61,116 nt of DNA, filler included, from 7 parts of 7 records of this genome joined end to end with filler, not necessarily neighbours in it; one strand, 5' to 3'. Positions 446-61,116 are shown, numbered from the whole stretch's first letter. Notes: generated from the sequence alone by a model not told the origin. Program-made: numbers and translations.

Positions 446-1339
446 TCATTGATCTGGCGGCGCTGGCTTCGACGGGATGCCATGCCACGCGCTGACTCGG
501 CTAGAGCTCACGATCTCTCCATCCTCGGACAGCTTGAAGGACTCAGCTGCCACGTATCTGTTGTAATGGACCTTGGCCATTTGGAACGGAAAGAACACAA
601 GCACCTGCACTTGGTCCAACAGCCCCCGGTGCTGACGCAGCATCAGGTTCTTCCCCAGCCCAGATCGTGCCACGCCCTGTCGGTCGCCATCAAGCGAGGT
701 CCCGAACTGGTAGCTCGTGCTGTCCACTTCGGAGGCGCATTCAGTCTGGGTAATCGCCAGTCCCCCCACTACATTAGTGTTCTTACACTGATACCAGCCG
801 TTGAATTGGCCCAGGTTTTTGTCCAGCGTACCGGTCACGATCGTGTGCACCGCGCCGCGCTCATACCAGGCTACCTTCCTGTTCCGCGGATTGAACCATC
901 CGGAGACCACAAACCCGCCGTCGCAGTCCTTGCCCCGCCCAGCCACCCGGCCGTCCTCCTCGAATTCCAGGTAGTACTCGGACAAGCCCGTGTGCCCCTC
1001 CTCATCGTACGAGCCGAACCAGGCCATGCCGGACTTGGGGAGCCGGCCGGGGCCCATGGGGCCAACGAACTGCTTCTGCTCCAACTCCCAGGCCTCCCGG
1101 TCCACCACCATATCCCCCGGCCACCGCCCGGTGACCATCGCGTGCCCGAAGGCCAGCGTGGTGTACCCCAGCCCCACAAGCGCACCGAAACCACTGCCCG
1201 ATTCGCCACCAGATCCGCCAGTGCCACCAAAACTGCCGCCACCACCGCTTGCACCGCCGCCGCCCTTGTGCCGGAAGCCCGCGCCCCGTGGCCTGAAGCC
1301 CCGTGTGCCCGAAGCCCCGAGCTGCCACACCCGCCGCAT
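446..1339 (-). CDS. Hypothetical protein, probably mitochondrion-targeted (Arg-rich presequence, Gly-rich linker, hydrophobic segment, beta-rich domain)
   Basis: ATG at 1339 within ORF 446..1498 gives MRRVWQLGASGTRGFRPRGAGFRHK then GGGG linker; head-to-head with the GH27 gene. Confidence 0.6.
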   Translation of the reverse strand: MRRVWQLGASGTRGFRPRGAGFRHKGGGGASGGGGSFGGTGGSGGESGSGFGALVGLGYTTLAFGHAMVTGRWPGDMVVDREAWELEQKQFVGPMGPGRLPKSGMAWFGSYDEEGHTGLSEYYLEFEEDGRVAGRGKDCDGGFVVSGWFNPRNRKVAWYERGAVHTIVTGTLDKNLGQFNGWYQCKNTNVVGGLAITQTECASEVDSTSYQFGTSLDGDRQGVARSGLGKNLMLRQHRGLLDQVQVLVFFPFQMAKVHYNRYVAAESFKLSEDGEIVSSSRVSAWHGIPSKPAPPDQ

Positions 1340-1390
1340 GCAGACGGCCGACGTACGGCCGCACGACCGAGGCTGCAGCTGGTTAACAAG

Positions 1391-3356
1391 ATGCCACCAT
1401 GGATCTTGCTGGCGCTGGCGCTCCCGGCGGCGGCGCACCCCACGTCCTTGCCGTCCGAGGACATCGTGCCCGAGTGGCCCAATGACCTCGCGGGGCAAGC
1501 CGCCGACTTGTTAGACCTCGAGGCCGAGTACCAGAGCGCCCAAGCAGGGCTCAGCCAGCCGCAGCACGCGGCGCACCTCTTCCCTCCCGGATGGAACGGC
1601 CGGGCCCGCACGCCGCCAATGGGGTGCGGATGGCCTCTAGGCAGCGGCGGGTTGACCCATGTGCAGGTGGAGGAGCTGGAACGCATTCGGGGCTGCGATC
1701 AATACCAGCATAATACTTGCCAACATCCAGGCCATTACCGCGGGCGGGGCCGACAGCCTGGCCGGGCTCGGCTACACTGATTTCGGGATAGACGAGGGCT
1801 GGGAGAGTTGCTCCAAGGGTTCCCCACCGGGCAGACTCAACCACGACCGAGCTGGCCAGCCAACGATCAACAGCTCCCGCTTCGGAGACCTGGCCGGCTT
1901 AGTCCAAGCGGGGCACAACGCCGGGCTGCAGATGGGCTGGTACTTGGCTGGATGTGCGTGCGGCGAGACGATTGAGCTTGAGCGGAACTACGCCGGGGAC
2001 ATTGATGCGCTGTCGAGCCTTGGATTCGATGCTGTTAAATTCGACAACTGTGGCGCGATGAAGAATTTGACACTGTACGCTGAGCTCATGCAGGCCACCG
2101 GCAAGAGCTACACCGTTGAGGCCTGCCACTGGGGGCACTGTTGGGACCAAGACGGCGACCCCGACGCCTCTGGCTGCCCCACGCAGGACTGGTGTCCATT
2201 CAATCTGTTCCGAACCTCGGGCGATGTCGCGTCCGTCAGTTCATCGTGGCTTCACAACCTTCAGACCACCAGCGCGTACAGGGACCTGCACCAGCCGCTC
2301 TCGAGGCCGCACTGCTGGGCATACCCAGACATGCTCGAGGTCGGGATGGTCGAAGAACCTGCTGGCTCAGCCGAGCTGCGCTGGAATCGTGCGCACTTTG
2401 GAGGCTGGGCAGTCTCGTCTTCGCCGCTGGTGATAGGCGCCGACGTGTCCGACAGCGCGCTGCTCGCGCGGATTATGCCAATTGTTGGGAACAAGGAAGC
2501 TATCGCGGTGAACCAGGCGTGGCACGGTCACCCAGGCCGGCTGGTGGGTGGCTCAGGGTATGAAGGTAAATATCCGGTGGTGCGCGACTGCCTGCCTAAC
2601 GACCCGACTCAGCAAGATTGGTCCTGGAACCCAGACTCCGGCACGGTGCGCGGTCCCGGCGGGCTCTGCTTGGACAACCGGACGATTGGGCCGTACCACG
2701 GAGCACCGATCCCTGACCCAGAGGCCAACCAGATGCAGCTGCGCGAGTGTGACGGGTCGGATTACCAAAAGTTTATCCTCAACAGCAGCCTTGGCGACTC
2801 ACCCTGGGCCGTGCTCCAGAGCAACCAGGTACCAATCGGCAAATCAGACCGGCCACTGCCGGGTGTGTGCTCTGCTGGAGTGGGCATGACCGGCCCGTGT
2901 TGCGTGGCCACCAATGGTTGGTGGGACTGGAATGTGGGACCGGTTCAATGCCAGAGCGGCGACTTCAACGCGATGCTCCAGTTTAAGAGTGGCAGAGTCG
3001 AAATGCGCCCGGACGACAAGGCAACCACCCGGCGGTGTTGGTCGCTCTGGGATTTCCCGGCCAGTGGATATGAGGTGCAGCACTGGGCCAAGCCGGTCGG
3101 GCTGAGGCAGGTGGCTTTGCTTGTGATTAACAGCAACGCAACGCACAGCAAGGAGGTCTCAGTGCCGCTCAGCCAGATGTTCGTGTTTGGGAGTGGTGTG
3201 GTGCCAGAGCAGGTAGATGTTCGTGACATATGGGCGCACACTGAGAATGGGACGGTCCACGAGGCGGTTGAAGTGACCGTGCAGCCGGCCGACTCTGCTT
3301 TTCTTCTCGTCACGACCACGGACACCCCACTTGACCCAGTCAACATGGTACAATGA
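1391..3356 (+). CDS. Secreted GH27 alpha-galactosidase/alpha-N-acetylgalactosaminidase-like enzyme with ricin-B (CBM13-like) domain; one 43-nt GT-AG intron at 1624-1666
   Basis: Signal peptide MPPWILLALALPAAA; NGRARTPPMG|WRSWN restored by splicing; IDEGW, AVKFDNC, FRTSGD and WAYPDMLEVG motifs; GLCLD/QDW ricin-like repeats. Confidence 0.92.
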
Positions 3357-5154: not shown

Positions 5155-5174
5155 CTGACCGCGGCCACACCGGC

Positions 5175-5369
5175 TCAGGCGGTGATGATGTCGCCCGGGT
5201 ACGGCTCGTCTTGAGAGCTCATGTCCTGGGCGGGCGAGGACGGCTGCGAAAGCGGGTTGTGGTGCTTTTTGACCGGCACCCGATTCTCAGCGATTGCAAC
5301 TGTCATCTGTGCGTCCAGCTCCTCGGCCTTGTCCTGCGCCCGCTCCTCCGCACTCGGGCGGCAGCCCAT
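5175..5369 (-). CDS. Small 64-aa protein with MGC N-terminus (possible myristoylation/palmitoylation)
   Basis: MGCRPSAEERAQDKAEELDAQM...; coding-like composition; two YAACGG motifs just upstream; ends 20 nt before the ATG of the oxygenase. Confidence 0.5.
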   Translation of the reverse strand: MGCRPSAEERAQDKAEELDAQMTVAIAENRVPVKKHHNPLSQPSSPAQDMSSQDEPYPGDIITA

Positions 5370-5690
5370 TTGACGTCAACCCCGCGGCCCCGGAAACGGC
5401 CAGATTGACAACGGTCAGCTCAATGTCCGTTACCGCTGCAGTTGCGGATCTGTCTCGATGACCGTTATAATGATCCAAGAATTTTATATTACAAGTAGCT
5501 CTACCAGACCTAGACTTGTACTTGCAGATAAGCGCTCTACTTGATTTGTATCGACTACGGCCGTCTCTACAAATCAAGTAAAACTAGGTATAGGAGGTTA
5601 CTAGGAGGGTAAGTGCGAAAAGAGCGATCAAATGCAATCTGTGCTATAGACACAGGTCTATGTACACTCGCGAGCGTTAATACGTGCTGT

Positions 5691-7172
5691 TTAGATTTCC
5701 CACGCCACGGCTCGTGGTCTTCCATCCCGCCCAACCGCTGCTTGCTTGCTTGCGTGTGACGGAGCATCCACTTGAGTAGTGCTGCCTGGAGGTTTTGCAC
5801 ACGGCACTCGTTCTGTTGGTGCAGGCCGGGCTGGTCTTGCGGATCTGCTGACCGACTCGTCTGGCAGCCTGCGACTTGGCCCCAGCTCCCTGGAGCCGGC
5901 ACCGCCTTGTGGCTCAGTGCCCCAAGCTGGCCGCGCGGCAGCAAAGTGCCGCACAATACAGGAAGCCGGGCCCATCGGCAGCCCTATCTGCCTGAGGTCC
6001 TCCTTGGAAAGGAACGGCAGCTCGGCTGCTGTGATCTCTTCACGCTGCAGTGTACCCAAGTGCTTAAGCAGCCCTAGCTCTCCCAGCAAATGCTCCAACG
6101 GATCGCCCGGCCCGGCGGCTTGCGCAGGGGCAGGTGATTGTGTCAACAGTTGCTGAACAAAGCCTTCCAGCACGGCGGGTGTGATATCCTCTCCCACTTC
6201 CTCGATCGCAGCTGGCCGATGGCTAGGCGGACTGGGCCTCTGCTCGACAATCGGCCTGGCCGGGTTACGGTCTACGCAGTACCGGCAGGTAGGCAGCCCG
6301 TTGCCACCCTGAAACATCACACTCCGGCCATACTCGTCCACTGGCTTGTGGCATATGCAGCACGCAAAGCACGCTTGGTGGAAGCTCAACTCTAGCCAGT
6401 CGACGCCGTTCTCCAGAACAGGCTGCTCGCACCCGGGGCAGGTGCGGCAAAACCCGCGCCCAAAGCAGGTCGGGCACAAGAGTCCCACCGGCTCCTGGTC
6501 ATAGTATTTGCCACCTTTGAGCGAATGGCCGCACTGTTCACAGCTGAAGCACTGGTCGTGATACCGTCGGCCCTGAGCGTCGGTGATCCAGCTGGCTTGG
6601 CTGATGATCTGAGAGCACCGGGCACAGCGCAGCCCCCTCCGCTCGGCGGCACAGCCCACGCAGAGTGGCCCCTCGCCATCCATCGCCGTCTGCTGGCCAC
6701 GTGCTATTGGCTGCTTACAGTCAACGCAGTCGTACAGCCTCTCCACCTGCTCGCAGCTGGCACAGCACGGCTCGCCCTCGCGCGCGTGATCCCAGGTGAT
6801 AGGCACAGCCGGGGCAAGACTGTCCATCCCGTCCGTACCATCTGTGATCTTCGACTGTCTGTACAGCCCGCCCTGGCAGTAGCTGCACCGCAGGCACGCC
6901 CGGTGATAGAGCTGGCCTCCCCACCGCACCGACTCCCCGCTTGAGCACGCCTTTCCGCAGCCGGCGCAAGGCCAGTCGGGCGCGGGCGGCTGGTAGCAGT
7001 TAAGGCAGTACAGCCGCCGGTCTTTGGATTGATAGAACTGACGGCCGGCCAGCGGGGAGAGGCAGTCTCGGCAGACGAAGCACTGCGGGTGGTAGACGGT
7101 GCCCCGCTGGTCGACCGGGGCCGGGCCTTGCTGCACCATCTTGGAGCAGCCGCCGCACACCGGAAAGCTCAT
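5691..7172 (-). CDS. Multi-LIM-domain protein with C-terminal SAM domain
   Basis: ATG 7172 (MSFPVCGGC); four clear CxxC...HxxCxxCxxC...CxxC LIM units plus one partial; LEHLLGELGLLKHLGTLQREEI...LSKEDLRQIGLPMGP is SAM-like. Confidence 0.85.
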   Translation of the reverse strand: MSFPVCGGCSKMVQQGPAPVDQRGTVYHPQCFVCRDCLSPLAGRQFYQSKDRRLYCLNCYQPPAPDWPCAGCGKACSSGESVRWGGQLYHRACLRCSYCQGGLYRQSKITDGTDGMDSLAPAVPITWDHAREGEPCCASCEQVERLYDCVDCKQPIARGQQTAMDGEGPLCVGCAAERRGLRCARCSQIISQASWITDAQGRRYHDQCFSCEQCGHSLKGGKYYDQEPVGLLCPTCFGRGFCRTCPGCEQPVLENGVDWLELSFHQACFACCICHKPVDEYGRSVMFQGGNGLPTCRYCVDRNPARPIVEQRPSPPSHRPAAIEEVGEDITPAVLEGFVQQLLTQSPAPAQAAGPGDPLEHLLGELGLLKHLGTLQREEITAAELPFLSKEDLRQIGLPMGPASCIVRHFAAARPAWGTEPQGGAGSRELGPSRRLPDESVSRSARPARPAPTERVPCAKPPGSTTQVDAPSHASKQAAVGRDGRPRAVAWEI

Positions 7173-7177
7173 CCGAT

Positions 7178-7229
7178 CCGCCACCGGTGCAGACCGGCCG
7201 CCTGCCGCCACCGGTGCAGACCGGCCGCC
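7178..7229. repeat. Two copies of a 25-nt unit, period 27, just upstream of the LIM gene ATG
   Basis: ccgccaccggtgcagaccggccgcc at 7178-7202 and 7205-7229. Confidence 0.9.
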
Positions 7230-7338
7230 GCCCGAGAGCCAATCTGGGTGCGTGGCGCCGCCGCCGCTGCTCCGGCCCTCGTGCTGCCGCCCGGGCGAGC
7301 CTGCACGGCGGCCTGAGTCCCAGTGGCATTGCATCAGT

Positions 7339-7356
7339 TCCGTTGTAAAATAACGG
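7339..7356. promoter_or_regulatory. Paired MYB-type sites in the LIM/channel divergent promoter
   Basis: TCCGTTG-taaaa-TAACGG. Confidence 0.5.
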
Positions 7357-7460
7357 CGGGGCCCCAAGAGAAGCGCCACGCCGCGTTCCCGCTGGGCCGT
7401 GCAGTCGGGGCGACGCCAGAATACGGTCCACCTGCCTGAATGAAGTCCGACCTGCCCAGG

Positions 7461-9118
7461 ATGGGCAACCTGCCGCTCTGTGTGGAGACCGGCCAGGAGA
7501 GCGGCCATCCCGAGCCGGAGCAGACCGCCGCGCCACCGCACGCGAGGCATGCGATCGGCCGGGCCGTGATCTCCGGCTGCCTGCTGCTGCTGCACCTGAC
7601 TACCTGCGTGCTGTACGGGCAGTGGAATCAGGCCGCGGTGCTGTATTATTACGACGTGTCCAAGGCGTGCTTTTACGACTTTGACATCCAGCGCTGGGAG
7701 CAGGCAGGCAACGATGCGTTGTGCGATAGTGATAAGATGCTCAATTACTGGAGCTCCCGGGCCGAGTATCAAACCATCACTGGGCTGAACGCTGTTCTGT
7801 GCGCTGGTTATGTGGGCGAGCTGGCCTATATTGCCTGGGTGCTCGGCTGGAAGATGTTGTACAAGAAGGAAGAGGACACCCGGCCTGAACCGTGGCTAGT
7901 CCGGCCCGGTGTGCAGGTGCTGAACGTCTGGAAAGTGGCGTTGCTTGTGCTTGCGATAGTCATCGCTCTGGTGATGTCGGCGACTGGCGATACGACTTTC
8001 ATCTTCTTTTGCCTGATTGCTTCTCCGCGCATGCTTGATCTGCTCCTGTCAATTCCAGGATTCGACGTTTTCTTCCGTGCCCTTATCGAGAGCTGCGTGT
8101 CGATCTTGATGCTCCTCTCGCCGTTCATTATGTTCTTGGTCGTGGGATCGTGCTTAGGAATGTTGTACTGGGGCAGTGATCTGACTAAATTCCCATGGCA
8201 GCACGGCAAGTATACCGTGACAGTGCCCTGCTTGTACTACCAGATGGTGCAAGCCTCGAACAACAATACACTTGGCTGCTCGGGGTCTGAGCTCATTGCT
8301 GCGCAGTATGGGACTACAGGGATTGTAGCTGACAAACAGCCGAGTCTTGACAGCTGCGACGTGCTCCGGCTGGCTTGCATCGACTACTGTCTGGAAAAGA
8401 ACCAGGCACACTGTTGCTACGAAAGTTTGATCGATACATTGTGCGGCTCCTCCGCTGCAATTGCAGGTGCCACGTTCGAGTACTCCAATGCGACCTGCAT
8501 GCTCTCTGATGATACTTCTACGCTGTTCACTGATGTGACAGTCACTACATCTCTGAGCAGCGGCGAGAGCACAATGCTCAAGCAATACATTGGCATCAAG
8601 TCCAGTACCGAAATACTGCCAAACAATTACTTTTACTCTGTGTTCCCGGGAGTGCTCACACTTTTCCAAATGTTCACCTGCGACAGCTGGTCTTCAGCGA
8701 TTGTGCGAGGGCTGTTGTCGCAGAGCGATACGTTCTCTGCTGACTGGTGGGACACCGGCCTGTGGCAGCTCGCTCTGAATATTGTGACAGGTGGGGCACG
8801 TATATTCTCAGCTTGCTCTACATGTTCGCTACTGTTCTTGTGATTGGAAACTTTTTTACAGGTATGATCGTGGACGGCGTCATGAAACAGCTAGCCAACG
8901 TACAGCAAGCCGACCCTGCATGCACTGAAGCCGGCACCGACGTCGACGAGCAAACAAATCCGCTGTACAAGACGTCGACGGATCTGACGGCTCAAGTTTC
9001 TGAATTGCAACGTGAGGTCGCATTGATGAACAAACGGATGAAACTGTTGTGCGATAAGCTCGGTGTCCGCGAGGATGAGCAGCTGGGAGAGCCCACATCG
9101 GATGTTTTGAACATGTGA
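7461..9118 (+). CDS. Single-domain cation channel (Ion_trans fold) with a large Cys-rich extracellular loop; intron at 8747-8790
   Basis: Several TM helices; pore helix and filter YFYSVFPGVLTLFQMFTCDSWSSAIVR; S6 LVIGNFFTGMIVD; C-terminal coiled coil. Start could be 7440 or 7461. Confidence 0.8.
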
Positions 9119-9319
9119 TTCTATTGCACCAAGTGTGGGACGTTGACGAGAAGTACGGGTACATACGAGCGCAGTACATGTACACGCGGTACGCGGTCAA
9201 GCGCTAAGCTTTGACGCACGAAGTATATTCTCGTATATGTTTACCGTTTTACATTTTATATTCAGCTTTATATGCTTTGAATTAAACATATCCCTGAAGC
9301 GACATCAGCTCGGGCCGCG

Positions 9320-10012: not shown

Positions 10013-13000
10013 TTAGATCCGAGGTCCTTGAGAGAACTTGTCCAGCAGTTTGACCAAAAAGTGGTCCAGTAATTCTGGATTTGTTTTGATCTTGAACCTG
10101 CTGTCGGTGCTATTTGCCTTTACTTGCCAAGCAAGATGGATCATTGCAGTCTCAAACTCACGGAAGTTCATTTGAAGCAAACCTGAGAACGTGTGTTAAA
10201 AAAAGGATTAGTCGATGCAGACCTTGAAGGTCTCCTGAGATCCACCCAGCAGTGTAATTCTCTACCTCCTCCACATTTGAATTGATGAATACCTAAAGCA
10301 AATTCACCACACAACAGCACAGAAACTAGCAGCACCTGCAACAGTATATTTGAGGAAAGATTGAAGTTTCGGGCCATGTCGAGTTCCTGGGCAAGATCAT
10401 TAGGGTATCCAATAAGCTAACTGGCACCTGGCCCATCCAGAGAAACTCGACCACAGACATCTCATCTGCCTTGGTATCTGTCAGTCCTTTGCCCATCTGG
10501 CTCTTCACGCGCTGGCTGACTTCTTTCATACTAGAGCCAGAGTCACAATAGTACTGGTACAGCTTCTTCAGCCCAGTCCGGTGTTCTTGTAGGATGGCTT
10601 GCTCCTGCAAGACCCAGCTCACACAGACCATTAATTTGCATATCTTAACCTCCTCCGCAGTGTTAGTATTATTCTCCATGAAGTGATTGGCAACCAGATC
10701 TGGCGAGTCTTTGATATGTGGCAGGATGTACTCATGCACTAACTTTGTGAAGCACACCTGTAGAGGGTACGGCGACAGCACAAGACCACCCAGCCCATAG
10801 TCTGGCAGCCCCAACTGCCAATACCTTGCACCGAGCCAAGCAGCCTCTTCGCTGCTTCCATGCCGAGCAGCGCCACCAGTATGTAGATAGAGATGGATTG
10901 AAACCAGTAGTAAAGCTTCCACAAACCCCTCGAGGAGCAGGGTCCCCTCTTCCTTCTTGTCTTTGCCCGCGCCCCTCTTGGGCTCTGGGGTCTTTACTGC
11001 CTCTGCAGCCCTTGATTTATTTTTATAACTGAACGGCCGCTTCTTGGCCCTCCTTCTGAAGGCGCGGGCTATCTGCTCACCTGAGCCCAGACTCCACCCA
11101 GGTGGCTCGGGAAGATCTGTGAACCAGCACTTAGCAGTCACCAAACCACCTCGTATACCCTTTTGATTGGGAGGCAAGACTGTTGAACTCACCCAAAAGA
11201 TCTGTTTAAGGCTGGTCAGACTCACTGTCTGGCATGGCTCAGCACCTCGTCGAGCAGTGGAGAGCGAAGCTTGGCAGACAGTCCTACTGCTTGGCACATC
11301 CGATGGAACTGAGCCTTGTCGAACCGGAAGGCCTTGGATGGAACTACCCCGATCGATTCAATCACCTGACTCAGCTGACAACGCACCAGAGACCATGTGC
11401 GTAGAGAACTTGAGGAACGCCCTCCGGAGCACCACTAAGTAACTCTCAGGTTCGCGGCCAGGAGGTTGTAATCCTTGGTGTATGGCGTGGAAGAGTTCGA
11501 GAAATTGGATTCGAGGTAGAACCTTGTCCCCCCTCCAAAAGAACCGCTTGGTCAGCACGCGGGTCAGCTCTGGGAGTCGTGCTTCCTGGTGCTTCGCCTC
11601 GAATTGCAACGTAAGTACATAGTCTTTGAGATTGAGCCGGAGAACGCCCCATCGGTAGGCGACACGCTGCTCCAGGACCTTGCGGAGGAAGATCTTTGCC
11701 CTGCGCTGAATCACCCTAGCTGAGTGCTGCTGGAGGATCTTTATCATGATATTCTGGGCCTCTTCTTCACGGCGCCGCTCTGCCGCTTTCCCCCTCAACC
11801 TGTGATCGACAGCCTCTCATGGATCAGGCATAAAGATAGCATACACCTTTCTGTTTTCCAGACAGCAAGCGCCATTCGCCACACCTATGATGGATCAGCA
11901 CTTAGTGGGATCATGGCTCCCACCATCTGTATCTGCAAGGAACGCGCTGCGAGGCCTCGCTGAGCCAGCCTGTGTCGCCAGATGAAGTTCTTGCCAGAAC
12001 GAATCAATATCAATGCAGCCTTCCACTCCTGTGACCATGGCTCAGCTACTAAGTGAGTAACAATAAAAAACCTGCACTCGACCCCGGAGGTTTCGGAGCC
12101 ATTTAATCATCTGCCACCACTGCGATATATGATATATTGCCTTGCATTTTCGCGAATAATCACGCCGAGCCAACATACCACGGGCCTGTTAACACAGCTG
12201 GCAGCTTGCCCCGACCTAGTTATTACCATGCACTGCAAAGGTAGGATAGCCCGCTTGATGAACGTGTCAAGCAAAATCAGAGCCACATTGCACCTGGCGC
12301 AGTGCCCCCGGTACACCGACTGTATCTTCGTGGCCGCCCGCCGCCGGCTGACCAACAGCAGAACAAATTTGACGGGAGCAGCCAAAGTTACCCGCACCTG
12401 TTCTTTCTTCACCCAATGCAGCGCCCAAGTGCCACCTTGCGTGTAGCTCGACGGACAATGCGCATCCGCGACCGGCATAGCTTTGCTTGCCTGGCCGCTT
12501 CCTTTTCCTTCCTGAGCAATTTGTGCCCAATTGAGCTCACTGCCGCCCTGCCAAGACGTCAACCAGGTTTCTCTGGGTGCTTACTCTTGGCACTGCCGCT
12601 GGTAACTTTTTACACGGGTGCGGAGAGCACTGTAGGCTTCTACCGCGTTTCCTCCATCATCAGTGCACAACATCGACCGTGGCATAGCCAACTTGGCATT
12701 GGCAGCTGGAAGCGCCAGTGCCTGGTCCACATTGCAGAACTGGTCAAACCCAACTCTGGTCGGCCACTCTATGAAGCTGGCCAGGTGTTGTGCCACTGCA
12801 CGCGGGCCGTGCATGGACTCGAGGCAGCGCACCACCAGCATAGCCGGCGCAGTACCGCCCTTGGTCGCCTCACACAGCTGCTCCAGGCTGGTGGTGCCTT
12901 GCAGTGCTGTTGCCACTGTCACAGGGCTGGTTTCTTCAGAGCTGTCTGCCCTGCACAGCTCCTCGATCTGACGGGAAATCCGTGGGTTTTCCCGTCGGTT

Positions 13001-14386
13001 GTAGAAAGAGTAGGCCAGCTCGTCGAAATCGATCTGCCCGTCTCCATCCTTATCAAGAAATCCAAAGAGCACGAGTCGTTCTTGTGGCCCAACAGGCACG
13101 CCCAATGCTGTCAACCCGAGCTCCAGCTCGGCTACGCTCAGAGAGCCAGAAAAGTCATCATCGAGTGCAGAGAACAGACCTCTGCCATACAGGAGCTCAC
13201 CAACCGCGGGTCAATGGCTGACGGCAGACCGTAGGTTGTAGCGCCGGTCAGCTGGGGCAGTACAGGCTGCCCGAGCTCGGATTCGCTCCATCACGGTATG
13301 GAAACTGTCGTAGCACTGTTGTAGCGTGAGCCGTCCGCCCCGTGGCCCCACATACTCCAGCCCATGCACCAGCTGCTGCTCCAGCAGCCCCACCCACTGG
13401 CACAAGCGGTACAGCCCCCGCGGCCCGGCCTGCCCTGCAATCAGCCAGCTTCTAGCCTCAATCACACCGTCCGAGGCCCACCTACTTCGGCAGCGCACCA
13501 CTCGGCCGCCCTTTTCAGCTCTTCTGGCCCAAAAGAGTGATTAAACCGCCGCTGAAGTGACTGGCACTTCTGCTTCTGGAGCAGCTGGAGAGAGCTGCCA
13601 CCCTGTGAGACCCACAGGAGGGATCAGCACGCACCGTTTCCCCATCACTAGACTCGGGTCGCTCTGCTGCTGCTCGTCCAACGTCCAGATCATCACCTCA
13701 GCCTCTGCCCGCTCCAGCTCTCTGCCTAACAGATGGTACCCAGCCAGCAGACCCAATGCTGTCACACGCCAGCCATCTTTTACAGGATCCAGGAGTGCCA
13801 GCATCTCAAACGCCCGTCCGACCGTCCCAGGCAGTGGCTCGCGCCCGGCCAGCTTCGCTCCCGCCGGCTGCACCGAGCCCATCTCCCCTTGCTGACTTGG
13901 GGCTGGTGCAGTGGCCGGTGGCTTCATGCCGCGCCGTTCTGCCGACCGCCGGGACGGCCGGGCGGCAGCCGGTAGACTCTCTGCTCGGTCGGCGAACTGC
14001 TGGAGAGCGTGGGCGAGACAAGGTCGGTCGAGTGCCCGGTCGGGCCCCGCCATCTGGTCGAACCGCCGGCCGCAGGTGACCCAGCGGACAAACTGCTGGT
14101 GGTCCGGGTGATGGGCAGCGGCCTCGCGCAGCTCCGGCTCGGTGACCGCGCCAGTGCCGCTCCAATGTCCGCACACCCGAAGCAGCCGGACCGCCGCCTG
14201 CTCAGCTTGGCTCGCAGGCCGGTGAGCCGCCGGGGTCCCCGATTTGGGTCGGCGGGGGGCTTTGGGCGGCCAACAGGGGCTGGACAGTTCTGCTGGCGAG
14301 GAGAGCGGACTCACAGCTGGACTGGCGCGCTGGTTGGCCCACGCTCTCCACTCAGCCCCGGCTGGGGTCCCATTATAGGCCCACAT
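10013..14386 (-). CDS. Large multi-exon protein with EF-hand and IQ motifs (exon structure only partly resolved)
   Basis: EF-hand LDKDGDGQIDFDEL; IQ motifs AATKIQSVYRGH and ARVIQRRAKIFL; successive ORF pieces joinable by ~40-nt introns; stop TAA near 10013. Confidence 0.6.
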
Positions 14387-14480
14387 TAGTGTACTGTACG
14401 GTACCGTATAGTACATACGGCTATACTTGAATATTAGAAAATTATAAATCTCCATTGAATTTGAGTGGTACCTAAGGTCA

Positions 14481-19900: not shown

Positions 19901-20259
19901 CCTACCAACCTCGCCGGGCCCCGGCCACTGCTCGGCAGTCGAGCTTCGAGAGAGGCCCGAGCCGAGTTGTCTACCAACGGCACGAATCCTGTCTCCTCTG
20001 CATCGAACTGCTCCGTCTCAGACTGCTACAGCTGTACAAGTACGACTGTAGATGTCATGTTTTATGTCACCGGTGATATGTACATTGAGAGGCGGTATTT
20101 TAATTTGTCGTAACAATTAGTTGCATTCTCTTAAAAATCGTTAATATGTCTTAAAAGCTTATGTACAATCCCAGTTGAAGCTCCCGGTGTGAGCTAGTGT
20201 GAGCTAGCTCGCTTAGCCGGTTATTGCCAAAGTCCTGCGTCAGCTAGCCGTGATGTTAG

Positions 20260-35357: not shown

Positions 35358-35378
35358 CAGGCAGCCTTGTTGGAGATT

Positions 35379-38737: not shown

Positions 38738-38807
38738 GTGTGCGGAGGGAGCGACGCGTCTCTCTCTCTTAACATCCCGAGCCGATTCACTCTGGTAACC
38801 GAGCGCT

Positions 38808-38827
38808 TCCGTTATAAAAGTCCGTTG
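38808..38827. promoter_or_regulatory. Tandem MYB-type TCCGTTR sites in a bidirectional promoter
   Basis: TCCGTTA 38808 and TCCGTTG 38821 between divergent ATGs at 38737 and 38841. Confidence 0.55.
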
Positions 38828-38840
38828 CCAGCGGCTCGCC

Positions 38841-42176: not shown

Positions 42177-42235
42177 CGACTATGACACCATCGACTGATT
42201 TTGAGAAGGTTGCTGGGCGGATTGTGTGGCTGCAA

Positions 42236-43956: not shown

Positions 43957-44778
43957 TTACGCTAGCTCCAGCTTTTCAATGATAGTGCGCTTTTCCTGAC
44001 CGTCATGCCGAATCACAAAATAGGCCCGCCCGGCGGTCCGATCGATGTCCACCAGCTCCACCATATCGCCATAGTACAGCACCTGACTGCCGACTTTGAT
44101 GAACCGCTCCTTCTGCTCATTCTGAAAGTACTCCACCTGCTTGCCAGGAACCAGCGTAACTCCGTCGGTTATACCGGCCTGCTCCACAGTGCCCTCCATA
44201 CTCACCCGGACGGGCCGGCTATACCCGCCCGTGTCTGTATGCGCGTACCACGACTGGCCGACCATATTGGCCAGCCGGCCACGATCGGTCTCCCGCGACA
44301 CCTTCCGTACCCCCCGCGCCAGCATGGCGTGCACCGGCTCCCCGGCCCACACGCGCACTTTATCCGGCCCGGAGCCCACCATCCGGAACCCGCTGACCCC
44401 GTAGAACTCTACATGAATGCTGGATTGAGGCCAACTGAGCTCGACAACCGCCTCGGGGCACACTCCATACTGCTCCAGGGTGTTCGAGTCATCCAGCACG
44501 GTCCCGCTGAATTCGAGCGTGGCCACCGACGGCGGGGGCAGCTCCTCGGGCTGCCGGTCGAAAAGGTGCGCCTTAAGGTGCCCCGCGGTCCACTGAGGGC
44601 GCGCCTCCACCGCCAGCTCGTCCCCGTTGTGTAGCCGCACCTGGAGCGGGAGCGGGGGCCCGGAGGAGGGGGCGGGCGGGAGCGCGCTGGGCAGCCCGTG
44701 CCCGGAGAGGTCCACCGCTGGCGGCGGCGGCGTCCGGAATATTTGCTCCTCCGGCCCGCTGCTCCCGCCACACCCCAT
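43957..44778 (-). CDS. Ubiquitin-like domain protein with N-terminal MGCGGS lipidation motif
   Basis: LQVRLHNGDELAVE...TAGHLKAHL...LEFSGTVLDDSNTLEQYGV is Ubl-like. Confidence 0.75.
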   Translation of the reverse strand: MGCGGSSGPEEQIFRTPPPPAVDLSGHGLPSALPPAPSSGPPLPLQVRLHNGDELAVEARPQWTAGHLKAHLFDRQPEELPPPSVATLEFSGTVLDDSNTLEQYGVCPEAVVELSWPQSSIHVEFYGVSGFRMVGSGPDKVRVWAGEPVHAMLARGVRKVSRETDRGRLANMVGQSWYAHTDTGGYSRPVRVSMEGTVEQAGITDGVTLVPGKQVEYFQNEQKERFIKVGSQVLYYGDMVELVDIDRTAGRAYFVIRHDGQEKRTIIEKLELA

Positions 44779-44912
44779 GATGATGAACTCCGGCTTTAGA
44801 TCTATAACGGACATTCTCCGGTGACTTCAGCATGGCTGCCGGGCTGCAGCTCGCACTCTACTCGGCAGTCTCGTGCGTCAACCTGTGCCCCCCCCCCCCC
44901 CCCCCCCCCCCC

Positions 44913-45486: not shown

Positions 45487-47838
45487 CTACGTAGTGCTCG
45501 CACTGAGCGACACGGCGCGCGCATTCACTCTCTCGCGAGCCAGCGCCTGGCACACGCTGTCAGGCCTGCACCGCTCGGGCGGCACCTGGCGAGCCTCGTG
45601 CCGCCGCCTCTCAGAGTCCACCCGCACCCAACTCGGGACAGGCCGGATCGCGACAGAGATGAACAAGGAGAGCAGCAGCAGAGCATGCTCGATCACGAAC
45701 ATCAGCATCAGCCCCGACCTGACCGGGCGTCATCAGCACAGCCCTGCCAGCGGTGGTACTTTCGGGCCCTGTGGTCGTACGCGCCTGGTCCATCCACATC
45801 CTGCCGCCGGTCCGGGTCTGGCCAGGCGAGCAGGCACCTTGAACGCCCAAGGGAACCAAGTCATCAGCTGCTCGGAGGCCATCCCCATGATGAACGTGTT
45901 GGTGAGCACCGCCAGCCAAGCCATCACCAGCAGCACCGACTGCCACGGCCCGATGTTGTCAGCTCGCCGACTTGGAGGCCGCTGGGTCACAAAGCACAGC
46001 TTGAACAGATCGGACCTGCCGGTCGCTCACAGGACGGCCAGCAGTGGCCCGCACTTCATCTCGATCAAGTTGCACCCAACGGAAAGAATAGAGGCCAGTG
46101 GGAACGCCGCGGCGAACAGCACCACGTATCCGAACTCAATAACCATCTCCAAATAATCGTCAAACGGCTCGTACTCACTGAGCGCCAAAGCGTCCTCGAC
46201 AGCGCCGGTGCACGGGTCGAGGTCCTCGTTCTTCTTGTGCTGAGACTCGCGGAGCTTGCTTGCCTTGCGCGAGGACCAGAGCCGGAGCAGGCCGGGCAGC
46301 ACACACCTGCAAACCGTCGGCCGGCCCGGCATGCCTAGGCACTCCACGACCACCCTGCGGGCCGAGTCGGCTGTGTAGACGGCGACGAGTTCACTCCGAA
46401 GCTTGAGTACATCCATCTCGTAGAAGGCAATGTAAAACAGTCCCATCTGGCCCGCGCGTCAGGCCTGTGCGAGATAGCCGGCACGTAGGCATCGAACGCT
46501 TCAAACAGGAACCTCTTGATTATCAGCGAGTTCTGGTGCTCTCTCTCGGTCTTGTGATTCTCGAGCCTGCCCCGCTCTCAACGAGCACTCAGCCTGGGGG
46601 CGACACCTGGTGAGCCACTCAGCCACTGCGCCGTAGACCGCGTTGAGCAGCATGATCACCGCCACGTGGATGAGCACCGGCACCAACGGCATCAGCATCC
46701 CGCCGTCTGGGTCGAAGATTGCCCCGGGCAGCGCGAGCGCGGCCACGGGCTGGATGTGGATCGGGGATTCAAAGTGCCTTCGGCCATGTTTATCAAACTC
46801 GTCGGATCCGTGCACGTAGCCCTGCAGGTTGAGCGAGACGCAAATAAAACCGAAGGCCACGGCCAGCATGCCGGTCGAGACCAGGACGCTCAGAGGATAC
46901 CAGTAGTACCATCGCTTCCAAGACGGGTAGTATGTCTCCCTCCATCCGGTGACGGGCGAGGTGCGTTCGGTCCCGTGGAATTCGATCCGGCGCTCCGGGT
47001 GCTGCTCACACTCGGTGGTGTCCCACCTGCACGCCCAGCCGGCCGCTGACCGCTTCCAAAAGGCCTGGAAAGTAATCGCCCAGAGTGCGACAAATGCAGT
47101 GAATGCGGGGATGCGGGATGAGTTATCCACGGAGGTGTTCAGAGGCCGGAGCAGCCAGAGCGCGAGCCCGAGCAGCCCGGGGGCCATCAGCCAGATTGTG
47201 AAAAGGTTGAGCCAAGCGAAGTAGAACGCCACTTCCGAGCCAAAGTAGGTTCGGATCGCGCCCACTGGGGCCAGCACCGACCACTTTGCCGCCCGCCACA
47301 CCTCGCGCTGGCCCGTGGGCTCGTGCAGCCCGCACACTCCTTCCAGCTGGCCGGCCCGCCGGAGCACCTCCACCATGCTCTCCTCGGGAGCCGCCGGCTT
47401 GAGCAGAGCGGCCGCCGGTTTGCCCAGCGCGCACGAATCTAGCAGCGAGCGGACCAGCTGCGTCCGTTCGAACGGCTCGAAGAACTCCGGCGTGCCGCAC
47501 CCTTGGAAGAGCTCCCGGGTGGCCCGAGTGAAGATCTCGTGCCGGAAGCTTCCTGAGAGCGAGTCCAGCTCACAACGGCGCTTCTGGAGCTCCTGGAGCT
47601 CGGCCTCCTTCTCGAGCTCGGTGGGGCTGGCCGAGAGGATGAGCACGCCGTCGGGCGAGTCGGCGACCAGATCCCGGGCCACTCGGCAGCGCAGGCCCGA
47701 CCGGCGGAGCTGGGCCGCGCAGCAGGCGACCAGCTCGGCTGGCGCGCCCTCGGCCAGCGAAAGGATCAGCTCGCCCTGCCAGGACTCGCACGGCTCGTCC
47801 TCTGAGCTGCTCGGTCGACGCACTCGTCGCTCTGCCAT
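45487..47838 (-). CDS. Anoctamin/TMEM16 family channel or scramblase, about 7 introns
   Basis: IRTYFGSEVAFYFAWL, ENHKTE...NSLIIKRFLF, FDDYLEMVIEFGYVVLFAAAFPLA, NLIEMK|SD and NIGPW. Confidence 0.92.
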
Positions 47839-47911
47839 TTGCCCGTGCCGAACGGCCGTCGGCGCGGGACGCAGATTCCAGGCCTGAGGGGCAGCCTCTC
47901 CGGCAAGGATC

Positions 47912-52697: not shown

Positions 52698-53503
52698 CTA
52701 GTCAGCCGGTTGGGCCACTCGGACGTAGTCAATAAGGTGATAGGTGGGCAGCACCGTCTGGTTGCTCACGGGCTTTGGCCACGGCCCCCCAATTGCCGTG
52801 TTCAGTATCATATAGTAAGGCACATCATAAAACCTCGCATGCTGCCCGCTAGCAGTCACATTTGCACGTGAGATATTGTAATACACCCGCCCGTCCAACA
52901 GAAAGCTCACATGCCCCGCGGAGTACTCCACAGCGTATTCGTGGAACTCCCCGGCCCAGTCCCCCGCGACCTCCAAAGTCGCACTGATCGCCGAGTGAGG
53001 GTTACCGCACCGCCCGCCACCGTCTGGCCAGTGGTAGGTGCCGTGCAGCACGCCGTCGCCGTTGATCATTTCCATAATGTCAATCTCGCCGTTACTCGGC
53101 CAGCAGGCCCCATTATCAGGCAGCAACCAGTGAGCCGGCCAAATCCCATCTCCGCCCGCTGGCAGCCGAGCCCGTACGCACGCCCGCGTCATCCCCCGCC
53201 AGGCCCTCTTGCCCTGGCTCCGGACAGCCCCCGAGCTGTACTGGTACTGTCCGACCTGCTCCCTCCGGGTACGGAGCACCAGACTTCCGTTGGCCAGCCA
53301 GACGTTGTCGGCCGTGCCCCGGGCGCTCGGACCGAGGAGTCGTTGGCGGCCAGATCAACCGACCAGCTGGTCCGGTCGAGGGCCGGGCCGTCAAACTCGT
53401 CGGCGAACACCAGCCGCCAGCCCCCCCCGGGCCCGCAGAACGAGCCGCAGGCCGCCCCCAGCAGCGCTGCACAGAGAAGAAGCCCCACTGGCACCACACG
53501 CAT
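52698..53503 (-). CDS. Secreted GH16 beta-glucanase/laminarinase-like enzyme with an apparent frameshift near 53325
   Basis: Signal peptide; WRLVFADEFDGPALD; GIWPAHW; catalytic GEIDIME; FHEYAVEY; ILNTAIGGPWP; IDYVRV. Confidence 0.88.
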
Positions 53504-53861: not shown

Positions 53862-56800
53862 ATGCACTATGACGCGCAGAACGACGGCGGGGTGCACTTC
53901 GTGGACGTCGAGCGCTTCAAGCCCAATTACGACGGCACCTGCCAGCTGGCCCGGCGCAAGGGCCAGGAGTTCCGGCATCGGATCTACCGGCTGCGCTCCG
54001 GCTTCTTCGGGCTGCGCAAGTCGCGCGACTCGGAGTTGGAGGAGGAGTTCATCCTGGAGGGCGGCAAGGTGGAGCTGCACGGCGATCGCGTCATGCTCAA
54101 CCCGGCCCCGCACGCCGGCGCCCGGTACAAGCTCTACCAGCTCACATGCGCCTCGCTGACCGAGTCCATCATGCTGTTCAAGGCCCTCCGGCAGAACGCC
54201 GAGCCGGAGCACAGGATCCGGCTGCCCGATCGATTCGAGCAGGCGGTGCCCACCGGCCCGCACCTGTGGTGGTGCCAGCCCGGGATTGTGGCCGGAACCT
54301 CGTCGGGGGCTGGCACCGGCGACCGGATGGTGGACGGATCCTGGCAAAACGCCGAGGTGTGGGCGGCAGAGTCCGGCGACCGGGAGGAGTGGGCGGTTTT
54401 TGACCTGGGCAGGCCGGCGGAGGTCTGCCAGTTTAAACTATTCAGCACAGGCGGGCGCGAATGTCCAAGGGAGTGCGCTCTGCTCTTCTCGGACCGCAAC
54501 GAGCCCTGGGCCAAGTGGTGCCGGGCCGTCGACTGGCACGGCGATAAAGCTTGGGGCTGGAACAACCCGCCGGTCAGTTTCGCGCCCCGCGTGGCCCGGT
54601 TTTGGCGGCTCGAGGTGAGGAATACGTTCTCTGCTAGTGCGCCGGTCCAGATAGCTCAAGTGTCGTTCTATCTGTCATTCGATCACCAGGAGCGTGCGCC
54701 GGAGCAGAGCCAGGCGGAGGTGGTCAAGATGCTCGACTTTGACGGGAACGGGATCATCTCGCTTGACGAGGTGGGCGAGTATGTTTATAGTAGTGAGTAT
54801 GTACACAGGTGTTTGAGTATATGGATGGGAACCAGAACGGGCACATCGACCTGGAGGAGTTCACCCAGTTCTACATGGACCACGGCAAGGCGTTCAGGGA
54901 AGCTCTGGGAATGGGCTGCGCAATCGATCTCCCAGGCAGAGGCGCCCCCAGTGAGGCCGAGCAGCAGCAGTTGCCAGAGCAGAGCCAGGCCCACACCGGC
55001 GACTTGTTTAGGCCTGTGAGCAGCCAGCCGCGGACCGAGCCGCTGGAGCAGCACTCGGTGGCGGACCTCGTGCGGAGCATCAACGGGCAGCAGCTGGAGC
55101 GGCTGTTTGAGGATGTTGAGACCGACGCCATGCTTGTATTTGGGGCCAGGTGCACTGAGGAGCACGTCATGAGGGCGGTGCCTCCGGAGTTCTGGGATAC
55201 GAGGCCGATCAGCTGCCACACGCTCTCCTCTGACCGACATTTTGTCCCAATGACGCACATACCGTCAGCCGAGATGCTCGTGGTGCTCGATGAGGGCTCG
55301 GGCGCGCTTGCGATGGGCGATCAGTTTATGCTAGTTGTGGAGCTGCTGCAGTGCAGTCTGATCCGTCAGGACCAGCAGCAGCATCGGATCACAATCGCGT
55401 GTGTGCCGCGCGTTCCGACCAGCTGGGCCTTCTCTCGCGCCGTTCTAGACGCGCTGCGTAGGTTCCCTGGTGCCGCGTCCCGAGTGCGGTTTGAGTCGCT
55501 ACCAATCTGCCTCTCGCCGCATTCGAATGGGTTGATGACAATGGGGTTACCAGCCATGGGCCACACAGTCGCCCTGGGGTGTGGCAGTGGGCAGCAAATG
55601 GTGGATTCGGTTGTGCAAGCGATCTGCTCCATCGAGGAAATTGTCAACTCTATAGACATCTTGCAAGCCAAGGGCGATACTGCTGTGGCTATTGCCAAGC
55701 AGGTCATCAAGAAGCGCGCACAGCGACCAAACGCGGCCCGGCGATGTCGGTCGATCAGCCGTGTAGTAGTGTTGGACCGGACTGTGGACATGTTCACCCC
55801 TTGTCTGACTGAGCAATCTTACAGCGGGATGCTGAGCGAGCTGTTTGCCGACCTGGCTGAAGTTCGAGCGCTTGTAGCGCCGATGCTCACACAGCGGTCT
55901 GGCGGGGACGAGCAGATGGAAGAGCTGCTCACTTGGGATCACCGAGACCCAATCTGGGAGGATCTCAAGCACGGCTCGTTCGAGGGCGCCAAGCAGATGC
56001 TGGTCGAGACGTGTGATTACTACAACAGCATGCAGGTGTGCTGTGGCGCGTAAGCCTCGAGCCCGTGGGCGCAGGATAATCTGGACAACTCTCTTTCGGC
56101 AGCAAAGCTGATGGAAATGAAAAAAGATCACCAGAGAATCACTAAACATCGACCATACATCATGGCTCACATGGAGGTGAGCCGACCTGGGCTTTGGGAG
56201 CTCCAATTTGAGTGTTGGCAGGTGATAAATGCAGTCACTAAGAAGCTGAGTCAGCTGCTTGACGACGACTGCGATCTCGCCCGCAGCCTATCCAAGTCTG
56301 AGGACGGTAGCTACCGGCTATGTGACTCCGTGCACTTTCAGAAAGTCTTTTACCGCGACCAGCTTTATGAGCATGAACCCTCACTTGTCACTCAGTTTGT
56401 GCTCAATCGCATCGACGGGGGGACAGCTCTAGTTGCAATCCTTCGGTTGTTGGGGCTGATATCAATCAGCTCGCATGGCTTCCGGTCGAACGATATGCAA
56501 CAAATCCGGAGCAGCATTTTGCAGAAGCACGGAGCCGCGGCAGCGGCCTCCCTCGCAAATATGGAGCGCGCTGGGATGTTGAAACGTCGGCCTGAGAAGG
56601 GGCTGTTTGGGCTGGGTGTCACCAGGTGGGAGAAACTGAATCGCACATTCAACCTCTACACAGACACAAACAAAGACAGTGGCGGGCTGGCAGTTGGGTA
56701 TGATGGCTATGTGCCGCTGCTGGTCAGGACTTTGGAGCATGCAGTGCGGGATCAATGGCGAGACAAGTCACTTTCAATGCTACGAGGAGAGATATTCGAA

Positions 56801-57037
56801 GCGCGCCATCGGGATGCCAAAAAGTGGCAAGAAGCCTACCATGGCGAGTATGGCCTCGAGGAAGTCAAGCACGAGGCTGTGCTGGTCGTATGTGTGGGTG
56901 GGTGTTCGGTCACTGAATTGGCAAGCATTCGTGCATTGGCTCGCCAAGATGGCAGGCCTTACATTGTGATTACTACTGCTATGATATCGGGTCGTGACTT
57001 TGTTCGTTCGTTCAAGGCAGATTGGGAATCTGAATAA
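53862..57037 (+). CDS. Sec1/Munc18 (Vps33-like) protein with N-terminal PH-like, discoidin/F5-8C-like and EF-hand domains; three introns
   Basis: VVLDRTVDMFTPCLTEQSYSGMLSELF, YDGYVPLLVR, LVVCVGGCSVTELASIR and IVITTAMISG (SM family); EWAVFDLG...ARFWRLEV (discoidin); LDFDGNGIISLDE and MDGNQNGHIDLEEF. Confidence 0.8.
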
Positions 57038-59974: not shown

Positions 59975-60125
59975 GCTGCCCCAACCGCTGCCTTGTAAGT
60001 TGCAAGCAGGCAAAAGTCTGCAAGTCGAGCTGCTCGAGCATGCAGTCGGGTGGTGGGGCGGGTTCCAGCTGACCGAAGGCTCGCCCGGCCAGACACAGCA
60101 ACACGAAGCAGCGCACCAGTCGAAG

Positions 60126-61116
60126 ATGGAGGAGGTGTGGCCGCCGGGGGATGGAGGAGGGATGGCGGAGGTGCGGGCCTCCATCCAGCGGGCGCTGGCC
60201 CAGCACCAGGCCCGGGTGAACCGCCTCAAGCGCCGGATCCAAGAGGAGGAGGACAGCGCCGCCGAGGAGGCCGCCCGAGCCCGCACCGAGAGGGCGGAAT
60301 GGCAAATGTTGCTCGAATGCTCCTTTGGGGCGCCGGAGGAGTCGCCGCCGGGGACACTGGAGGCAACGCCGCCTCAGGAGGGGGCTTCTTCTGCTCCGGC
60401 AGTGAGCCCGCCGGAGGAGAGGCTGCGGGAGGAAACTCCGCCGGAGCTAACCCGGGCCCTTGGGGGGGTGGCGCAGAACGCTGGCGCTGGCCAGTGGCAG
60501 CAGCAGGCCCAGCAGCAGCAGGAGGAAGAGGAGGTCACGCAGCTGCCGGGGCAGGAACCGCCGCAACCGGTGCAGCGGTACGGGGGGCTGGTCAGCAAGA
60601 GCGCCCGCGAGGCGGTGGCGGCCAAGTTCATGCTTCCCCCGCTGGCCGCCACCGAGGCGCTCGCCAGCGACGACGACGAACCAGACGAGCCTGAGCCGGG
60701 CGAGCTGGACGAGACCCGGGCAACCTTTGAGCGATGGACCGGATTCGACTCCCAGTTCTCCCAGCCCAAACTGGCCGAGCCTGCGCCGGCTGACAGCCCG
60801 GACGAGGCGCTGGCGTTCGAGACAGCGCCCAGCCAGGGGCACGAGCCCGGGCTGATGCGGCCACCAGTGGTGGTGATGGTACCTGAAACTCAGTTTGCAC
60901 GCACGCCAGGCCTGGGAGTGCAAGGAAGCCCTGTTCTGGGGGTTCACGGATTCGGGAGTCCTGTTGGAGCCACCCAGGGCGCCGAAACCCAGCTGCAAGA
61001 TGATGTGACCCAGGACTATTCGATCGATGGGCAGGAGGCCACGCAGGCACCACCATTGCATGGTCAGGAGGCTACACAGGCACCACAACTGCATGGGCAG
61101 GAGGCTACGCAGGCAC
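60126..61116 (+). CDS. Acidic low-complexity protein rich in S/TQ motifs, running off the window end
   Basis: Open frame from ATG 60126 to the end; N-terminal coiled coil; DSQFSQ, VPETQF, ATQG, ETQL, VTQD and EATQA repeats. Confidence 0.65.
   Translation, partial: MEEVWPPGDGGGMAEVRASIQRALAQHQARVNRLKRRIQEEEDSAAEEAARARTERAEWQMLLECSFGAPEESPPGTLEATPPQEGASSAPAVSPPEERLREETPPELTRALGGVAQNAGAGQWQQQAQQQQEEEEVTQLPGQEPPQPVQRYGGLVSKSAREAVAAKFMLPPLAATEALASDDDEPDEPEPGELDETRATFERWTGFDSQFSQPKLAEPAPADSPDEALAFETAPSQGHEPGLMRPPVVVMVPETQFARTPGLGVQGSPVLGVHGFGSPVGATQGAETQLQDDVTQDYSIDGQEATQAPPLHGQEATQAPQLHGQEATQA
61027..61116 (+). repeat. 33-nt coding tandem repeat (GQEATQAPxLH), at least 2.7 copies
   Basis: Units start at 61027, 61060 and 61093. 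Confidence 0.9.

Follow-up and report, generated by a model that had tools for sequence, protein, structure and literature searches.

Alternating gene orientation and short head-to-head gaps in seven contigs of a compact protist nuclear genome

Introduction

The DNA examined here raises the question of how genes are transcribed when most of them lie on the opposite strand to their neighbours and many pairs of start codons are separated by less than 100 bp. The window, by which we mean the whole stretch of 61,116 bases that was analysed, consists of seven contigs (3.9-17 kb) with artificial N/TTAATTAATTAA spacers between them, and these contigs are pieces of the very compact nuclear genome of an uncultured marine protist. 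The GC content is approximately 61%, coding sequence makes up 82.7% of the total and introns a further 6.6% according to our joint two-strand gene models, and there is approximately one gene per 1.9 kb (32 models of at least 60 aa). Pfam families were found on 20 of the 65 long open reading frames (ORFs) scanned, and the set is plainly that of a eukaryotic nucleus, including a Nup133/155-type nucleoporin, LIM, anoctamin, Sec1, cytochrome b5 with an FMN dehydrogenase (a cytochrome b2-type protein), IBR, ankyrin, PAN, F5/8 type C and GH16/KRE6-like domains. We confirm that the alternation of strands in these seven contigs is real; for the genome as a whole it is unproven.

Results

Orientation of neighbouring genes

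The 32 gene models form 25 neighbouring pairs within contigs, comprising 10 divergent, 11 convergent and 4 tandem pairs. Neighbours are therefore on opposite strands in 21 of 25 cases (84%, against approximately 50% expected; one-sided binomial p = 4.6e-4), with head-to-head pairs accounting for 10/25 and tail-to-tail pairs for 11/25 where about a quarter each would be expected, and the longest run of genes on one strand is two to three. A preliminary description of the window, made from the sequence, had counted 22 opposite-strand pairs among 25 and nine consecutive alternating genes in contig 31769-44912. Our independent models come within one pair of the first figure, and the second is reproduced if 38841-39685 and 39769-40092 are one gene, the strands in that contig reading -,+,-,+,-,+,(+),-,+,-.

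The count hinges on how ORFs that share a strand and are linked by predicted introns are treated, as one gene or as several, and with different merge choices it ranges from 20/22 (p = 6e-5) to 20/28 (p = 0.018), the latter with all five doubtful models split. A possible, if somewhat unlikely, explanation of the alternation is that it is a local or sampling effect in a genome where orientation is close to random, to which ORF merging may add. Contig 31769-44912, only 13 kb long, supplies 8 of the 21 opposite pairs, and 7 of the 32 models exceed 800 aa, which is somewhat many. Against this, p is 0.018 even under the most conservative split, and two of the merges have evidence of their own. The nucleoporin join is proven by homology, with the ORF at 16093-18447 matching residues 240-1042 and that at 14840-15676 matching residues 1160-1370 of the 1,370-aa protein P0124, while in the F5/8 type C model a 38-nt intron (54771-54808) links the two halves of an EF-hand pair. 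The remaining merges span just 3-60 nt with canonical-looking introns, compared with 274-489 and 359 bp for the tandem gaps that were accepted.

A related contig bears on the same question. Scanning the metagenome with the cytochrome b2 protein gave five loci, one of them a close relative (L001, 1-10714, GC 0.66) whose cytochrome b2 is 70% identical; a nucleoporin scan of genome contigs and a cytochrome b2 scan of viral contigs gave no relative. On L001 a full-length cytochrome b2-type gene of 760 aa precedes three minus-strand genes in tandem, with 2 predicted introns in 10.7 kb and tandem gaps of 190 and 309 bp. Only one of its three neighbouring pairs is on opposite strands, and since its order is +,-,-,- alternation is not general among relatives. 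The same gene finder left these tandem genes unmerged, which argues against merging as the source of the alternation in the window.

Gene models and RNA support

Gene models were obtained by joint dynamic programming on both strands, scored by codon usage, with GT/GC-AG introns of 32-62 nt allowed. Plain ORF lists are misleading as a gene catalogue here because genes are split by tiny introns and long antisense ORFs are common, and gene finders that treated one strand at a time ran on through antisense ORFs and were replaced by the joint version. In all models but one the sense frame scores 0.16-0.45 bits/codon compared with at most 0.04 in any antisense frame, the exception being a 74-aa fragment at a contig end (sense 0.07 bits/codon), and sense also exceeds antisense for the 17 models that do not overlap the training set. 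The strands are further backed by the Pfam families, by the ordered match of the nucleoporin ORFs to their homologue and by the splice sites in two RNA contigs.

Among sequencing runs, two public ones were found to match, a marine metatranscriptome and an aquatic metagenome (shares 0.05-0.06), both on contig 31769-44912, and most bins of the stretch are without RNA cover. The RNA is available as assembled contigs and neither transcript reaches its 5' end. One contig of 1,417 nt lies on the plus strand at 35610-37412, is broken by ten small joints and continues into a poly(A) tail beyond 37412, and another of 338 nt belongs to a minus-strand gene at 32114-32535 and has three small joints. Together they support 13 introns of 36-49 nt (window 35569-37146 and 32266-32508), 10 of them GT-AG and 3 GC-AG. 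The gene finder placed 9 of these exactly and 2 with the donor 2-3 nt off, missed 2, and assigned the correct strand to both expressed genes. Its predictions for the whole window come to 92 introns, approximately 1.5 per kb, and their median length is 43 nt.

Gaps between genes

The ten divergent gaps, measured from ATG to ATG, are 5, 51, 55, 73, 84, 84, 103, 132, 207 and 267 bp, with a median of 84 bp and a mean GC of 0.64. The eleven convergent gaps, measured from stop to stop, range from 78 to 520 bp with a median of 268 bp and a mean GC of 0.44. The two classes differ in length (Mann-Whitney p = 0.003) and in GC (p = 6e-5), in agreement with the earlier remark that convergent spacers are longer and AT-rich. 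The ten ATG-to-ATG distances first listed were also recovered, within the choice of start codon: the starts are the same at 1339/1391, 23922/24007, 32718/32774, 38737/38841, 42176 and 47838/47912, and the previously given values of 59, 151 and 288 bp derive from alternative ATGs at 42236, 59974 and 7461.

Some divergent gaps are minimum estimates because the start codon is simply the first ATG of the ORF. Two are tightly bounded. At 42176 versus 42182/42236 (5-59 bp) the coding signal runs up to both sides, and at 47838/47912 (at most 73 bp) there is no alternative ATG within 450 nt that the anoctamin ORF could use, and homologues match the start of the cytochrome b2 gene. In the gap between the LIM and ion-channel genes a unit of approximately 24 nt (CCACCGGTGCAGACCGGCCGCC...) is directly repeated at 7176-7232, and the minus-strand ORF there stays open as far as an ATG at 7550. 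On the convergent side, one mRNA has AATAAA 15-20 nt ahead of its poly(A) tail; as a general poly(A) signal this word was rejected, being present on the plus strand in just 2 of the 11 convergent gaps and as its complement in 2.

A pentamer enriched beside gene starts

Repeated AACGG/CCGTT sites were noticed on reading through the gaps. The 5' gaps, a set of 2,136 nt (3.5% of the sequence), take in all ten divergent gaps, those of two tandem pairs and, at contig ends, two upstream regions. Of 114 AACGG/CCGTT sites, 16 fall inside this set, a density of 7.5 per kb compared with 2.3 in 3' gaps and 1.6 elsewhere (4.6-fold). Of 512 5-mers tested for enrichment in the 5' gaps, AACGG ranks first once homopolymers are set aside (p = 2.8e-6); C-runs were the top-scoring k-mer in these tests. 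The matching 6-mer AACGGA has 9 sites where 0.97 would be expected. YAACGG occurs 67 times (47.9 expected) and AACGGAAG, a form in which the core is found several times, 6 times (1.26 expected). Six of the ten divergent gaps contain the pentamer, as do both tandem gaps, and the sites are often paired, sometimes in inverted orientation. In tandem gap 5370-5643 four sites are bunched at the downstream start, and the AT-rich part lies at the upstream stop.

Judged from sequence alone, the core presumably resembles Myb-type sites. Myb-type AACGG elements include the c-Myb site YAACNG, the plant MSA element and the Trichomonas M3 motif; these have the same core pentamer, which is here enriched beside gene starts. 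The enrichment is suggestive and would fit shared promoter zones.

Proposed shared promoter and terminator zones

The reading that we consider reasonably likely is that of a compact genome in which head-to-head pairs are arranged around short GC-rich regions serving both genes, with longer, AT-richer termination regions that are also shared. Most genes belong to such head-to-head pairs, and neighbouring pairs meet tail-to-tail, a layout that alone yields strand alternation. This arrangement, the two classes of gap and the enrichment of AACGG are established by the analysis. Each short gap would act as one promoter for both directions, a single zone that is bound by factors, is probably free of nucleosomes and would let RNA polymerase II initiate both ways. 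The 5' untranslated regions (5'UTRs) would be very short or overlapping, and AACGG may be a binding site that helps to define the initiation zones. So understood, the window would hold a real, extreme form of a known arrangement, that of bidirectional promoters in a compact genome.

It had been proposed earlier that transcription may start almost entirely from compact bidirectional zones. The layout of the gaps and the enrichment of AACGG fit such zones, but "entirely" is too strong, as at least two same-strand pairs are arranged tail to head (LIM to Sel1, and the 1205-aa gene to Nup155) and have upstream gaps of their own.

Several observations weigh against the reading of shared promoter and terminator zones. 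The sample of 25 neighbouring pairs is small, and the count falls when the doubtful models are split. Four of the ten divergent gaps contain no AACGG, its distance and orientation to the ATGs are not fixed, and two more sites lie inside the intron at 32266-32304. Some of the true starts may be further downstream, which would make some gaps wider. In L001, the cytochrome b2 gene has at least 299 bp of non-coding sequence upstream and no divergent partner.

The gaps might also be no more than what is left between coding regions, with transcription starting in or beyond the divergent neighbour and the 5' ends overlapping extensively, as happens in other hyper-compact genomes. Gaps of 5-73 bp are too short for two separate core promoters and two ordinary 5'UTRs, and at 3' ends overlapping transcripts are plausible because just 53 bp separate the poly(A) site at 37412 from 37466, where the opposite gene may have its stop. 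We nevertheless think such starts very unlikely as an explanation of the gaps, since the GC and AACGG signals are concentrated within them, including in the tandem gaps, which lack a neighbour's coding region upstream.

Spliced leaders and lineage

A third possibility is that the genes are transcribed in the Euglenozoan manner, as long precursors resolved by spliced-leader (SL) trans-splicing, in which case the gaps would need no promoters. Trans-spliced leaders had been suggested for this window in the preliminary description, and they are unsupported by what we find. The sole 5' overhang, an 8-nt loose end at 35610, was considered as a spliced leader and rejected: with one mismatch its letters are those of the exon upstream of a 42-nt GT-AG intron (35569-35610) that closes with CAG, an ordinary cis-intron. 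An Rfam scan of the 61-kb window found no Rfam families, SL RNA included, and a tRNA scan of the window found no tRNA genes.

The case for a Euglenozoan mode comes from the cytochrome b2 gene and from the introns. Among its named matches, the cytochrome b2 protein is closest to those from two diplonemids, Hemistasia (67% identity) and Lacrimia (63%), and in a FastTree tree of 47 rows it falls in a well-supported 9-row clade (support 98) whose only named members are these two; the sister clade contains a choanoflagellate. The RNA-supported intron lengths match the medians of 37-42 nt given for three diplonemids in PMC12621601. The branch-point signal differs, as a YTRAY (CTGAC-like) motif is present in 8/14 introns here (the 13 with RNA support and the one inferred at 35569-35610) compared with the 2-16% reported for six diplonemids in that source. 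The nucleoporin does not point the same way either. A word-based homologue search gave 1 match, and an exhaustive search gave two full-length relatives at 37-38% identity and then matches of at most 80 bits. Nine of the 20 best matches are named, comprising five early-diverging fungi, one malawimonad, one CRuMs member and two without an organism in the name, and Euglenozoa are absent among these nine.

Co-transcribed arrays also need co-oriented genes, and same-strand runs here reach two to three genes at most. Given alternating strands, an overhang that is a cis-intron and no SL RNA seen in the window, we regard Euglenozoan polycistrons as extremely improbable. As for the lineage itself, the tree of one gene, cytochrome b2, points to diplonemids, and the nucleoporin search and the branch-point signal do not.

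Gene content and further observations

The genes, gaps and contigs are collected in Table 1. The plus-strand gene expressed at 35490-37171 encodes a multi-pass membrane protein that looks internally duplicated, with two similar halves. The model at 53862-57037, in which the Sec1-family domain is of the vesicle-trafficking kind, has no stop codon between its domains; it may represent a fusion protein of unusual make-up or else two separate genes. A database look-up of the alpha-galactosidase returned family names only and no informative taxon, and a word-based search found no homologues of the IBR ORF.

Contig 9842-14480 has a GC of 0.51-0.59, below that of the other contigs, and its predicted introns are richer in AT; it could be a distinct compositional region or, less likely, come from another organism in the same bin. 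Contig 31769-44912 terminates in a run of 24 C (44889-44912), which is the likely cause of the assembly break at 44912. An AT-rich word, GTACAGTATA, occurs 7 times with at most one mismatch where 0.57 would be expected (34700-34725, 50623-50632, 57141-57150, 32052-32061 and 14390-14410), within two introns and elsewhere in stretches that are 3' or non-coding. The word could be a small repeat or a signal for 3' ends.

Table 1. Contigs, gene models and intergenic gaps in the window
Feature	Position	Strand	Basis and remarks
Contig bounds	1-9741, 9842-14480, 14581-31668, 31769-44912, 45013-49561, 49662-53578, 53679-61116
Gene, 298 aa, no Pfam family	446..1339	-	Model; sense 0.29 vs antisense -0.10 bits/codon
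Divergent gap	1340..1390		51 bp, GC 0.67
Alpha-galactosidase gene, 641 aa, 1 predicted intron	1391..3356	+	Pfam Melibiase_2/Melibiase_C; model
Convergent gap	3357-3732
Sel1-repeat gene, 474 aa	3733..5154	-	Pfam; model
65-aa ORF upstream of Sel1 gene (small gene, first exon or upstream ORF)	5175..5369	-	Model; AACGG cluster just upstream, 5395-5466
Tandem gap (LIM to Sel1)	5370..5643		4 AACGG/CCGTT sites by downstream start; AT-rich half by upstream stop
LIM-domain gene, 4 LIM stretches	5644..7172	-	Pfam; model
Divergent gap	7173..7439		267 bp (288 to next ATG); inverted CCGTT/AACGG pair at 7340/7352
Ion-transport-domain gene	7440..9207	+	Pfam; model
Convergent gap	9208-9319
Gene fragment off contig end	9320..9739	-	Model; codon score
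Long 1282-aa gene model with IQ motif and 14 predicted introns, perhaps more than one gene	10013..14479	-	Pfam; model
Nup155/Nup170-type nucleoporin gene, ~1556 aa	14840..19900	-	Pfam Nucleoporin_N and _C; two ORFs in order on P0124
Tandem gap (1205-aa gene to Nup155)	19901..20259		359 bp; AACGG at 19976
Gene, ~1205 aa, no Pfam family	20260..23922	-	Model
Divergent gap	23923..24006		84 bp
1033-aa gene model with 10 predicted introns; may be two genes	24007..27531	+	Model
Convergent gap	27532-27609
Gene, 200 aa	27610..28296	-	Model; codon score
Divergent gap	28297..28503		207 bp; AACGG at 28342 and 28375
453-aa gene model with 11 predicted introns, weakly coding in its 3' half	28504..30316	+	Model
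Convergent gap	30317-30696
Gene off contig end	30697..31668	-	Model
Gene with 3 RNA-supported introns (1 GT-AG, 2 GC-AG)	32114..32718	-	RNA contig; model
Divergent gap	32719..32773		55 bp; AACGG at 32752
Ankyrin-repeat gene	32774..33625	+	Pfam; model
Convergent gap	33626-33797
Ankyrin-repeat gene, 504 aa	33798..35357	-	Pfam; model
Divergent gap	35358..35489		132 bp; inverted AACGG/CCGTT pair at 35380/35391
Expressed membrane-protein gene, 10 RNA-supported introns and 1 inferred	35490..37412	+	RNA contig; stop near 37171, poly(A) after 37412
Convergent gap	37172..37691		Contains mapped poly(A) site at 37412
Gene, stop at 37466 or 37692	37466..38737	-	Model
Divergent gap	38738..38840		103 bp; two CCGTT at 38809 and 38822
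Gene, modelled as 38841-39685 plus 39769-40092	38841..40092	+	Model
Convergent gap	40093-40504
Gene, ~541-591 aa	40505..42176	-	Model
Divergent gap	42177..42235		5 or 59 bp
Gene, 561 aa	42182..43864	+	Model
Convergent gap	43865-43956
Ubiquitin-domain gene	43957..44814	-	Pfam; model
Convergent gap	45237-45486
Anoctamin gene, 719 aa, 5 predicted introns	45487..47838	-	Pfam Anoctamin on two ORFs, profile order; model
Divergent gap	47839..47911		At most 73 bp; AACGG at 47851
Cytochrome b5 / FMN-dependent dehydrogenase (cytochrome b2 type) gene, off contig end	47912..49561	+	Pfam; start backed by homologues
IBR (RBR-type) gene model, 855 aa	49663..52374	+	Pfam; model
Convergent gap	52375-52697
GH16 / KRE6-like gene	52698..53503	-	Pfam; model; AACGGAAG upstream at 53544
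F5/8 type C, EF-hand pair and Sec1 family, one continuous spliced frame	53862..57037	+	Pfam; model
Convergent gap	57038-57305
PAN-domain gene model, 832 aa	57306..60041	-	Two ORFs 20 nt apart, canonical-looking 44-nt intron; Pfam
Divergent gap	60042..60125		84 bp (151 from ATG at 59974)
Gene, 282 aa	60126..61008	+	Model; codon score

Discussion

Hyper-compact eukaryotic genomes are found in small green algae, microsporidia, nucleomorphs, Giardia and Cryptosporidium. The window resembles them in having a coding density of approximately 80% or more, very short intergenic regions and probably overlapping transcript ends, but differs in retaining many introns, in being GC-rich and in encoding ordinary nuclear-pore and trafficking proteins.

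Bidirectional promoters between head-to-head genes are familiar from mammals, yeast, plants and compact protist genomes. In the abstract of PMC2194621, approximately 10% of mammalian gene pairs are reported to be head-to-head within 1,000 bp and to share a bidirectional promoter. The pairs described here share with these the opposite strands, adjacent 5' ends and short GC-rich region between the genes. All ten divergent pairs have their 5' ends within 1 kb of each other, although the 5-267 bp given here are between start codons and the known distances of up to 1 kb are between transcription starts. A shared cis-element, another feature of bidirectional pairs, is represented by the enriched AACGG, which is suggestive evidence at the level of sequence. 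What is unusual is the degree, with 84% of neighbours switching strand, start-codon gaps mostly below 135 bp and introns retained. We found no description of near-strict strand alternation in a nuclear genome in a limited literature search, which is weak evidence of absence.

The unidirectional SL clusters of Diplonema papillatum and trypanosomatids have a possible link to this genome through one gene tree and through tiny introns like those of some diplonemids. PMC10161547 describes D. papillatum as having loosely spaced genes in unidirectional arrays of 5-120, and essentially all of its mRNAs as carrying an SL. Set against that description, the architecture here is the opposite, with alternating strands and tight packing and no long co-oriented arrays among neighbours that mostly switch strand.

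If alternation holds only locally, the window would still be a clear example of an ordinary compact-genome feature. The strongest form of the claim, which we hold to be unlikely, is that nearly every promoter in this genome is used both ways and nearly every terminator zone is shared, with near-obligate alternation genome-wide and gaps often below 100 bp marked by a Myb-like AACGG. Were that true and the lineage related to diplonemids, as the tree of one gene suggests, this genome would invert the unidirectional, polycistronic layout that is regarded as typical for Euglenozoa. With genome-wide alternation, a marine lineage that has been poorly sampled would contribute an unusual type of genome architecture. 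It would also provide natural bidirectional promoters of very short length (50-130 bp), along with a candidate motif that defines them, for studying how the direction of RNA polymerase II is set. It would also show how far selection for compactness can push the sharing of promoters and terminators in a free-living eukaryote that keeps its introns.

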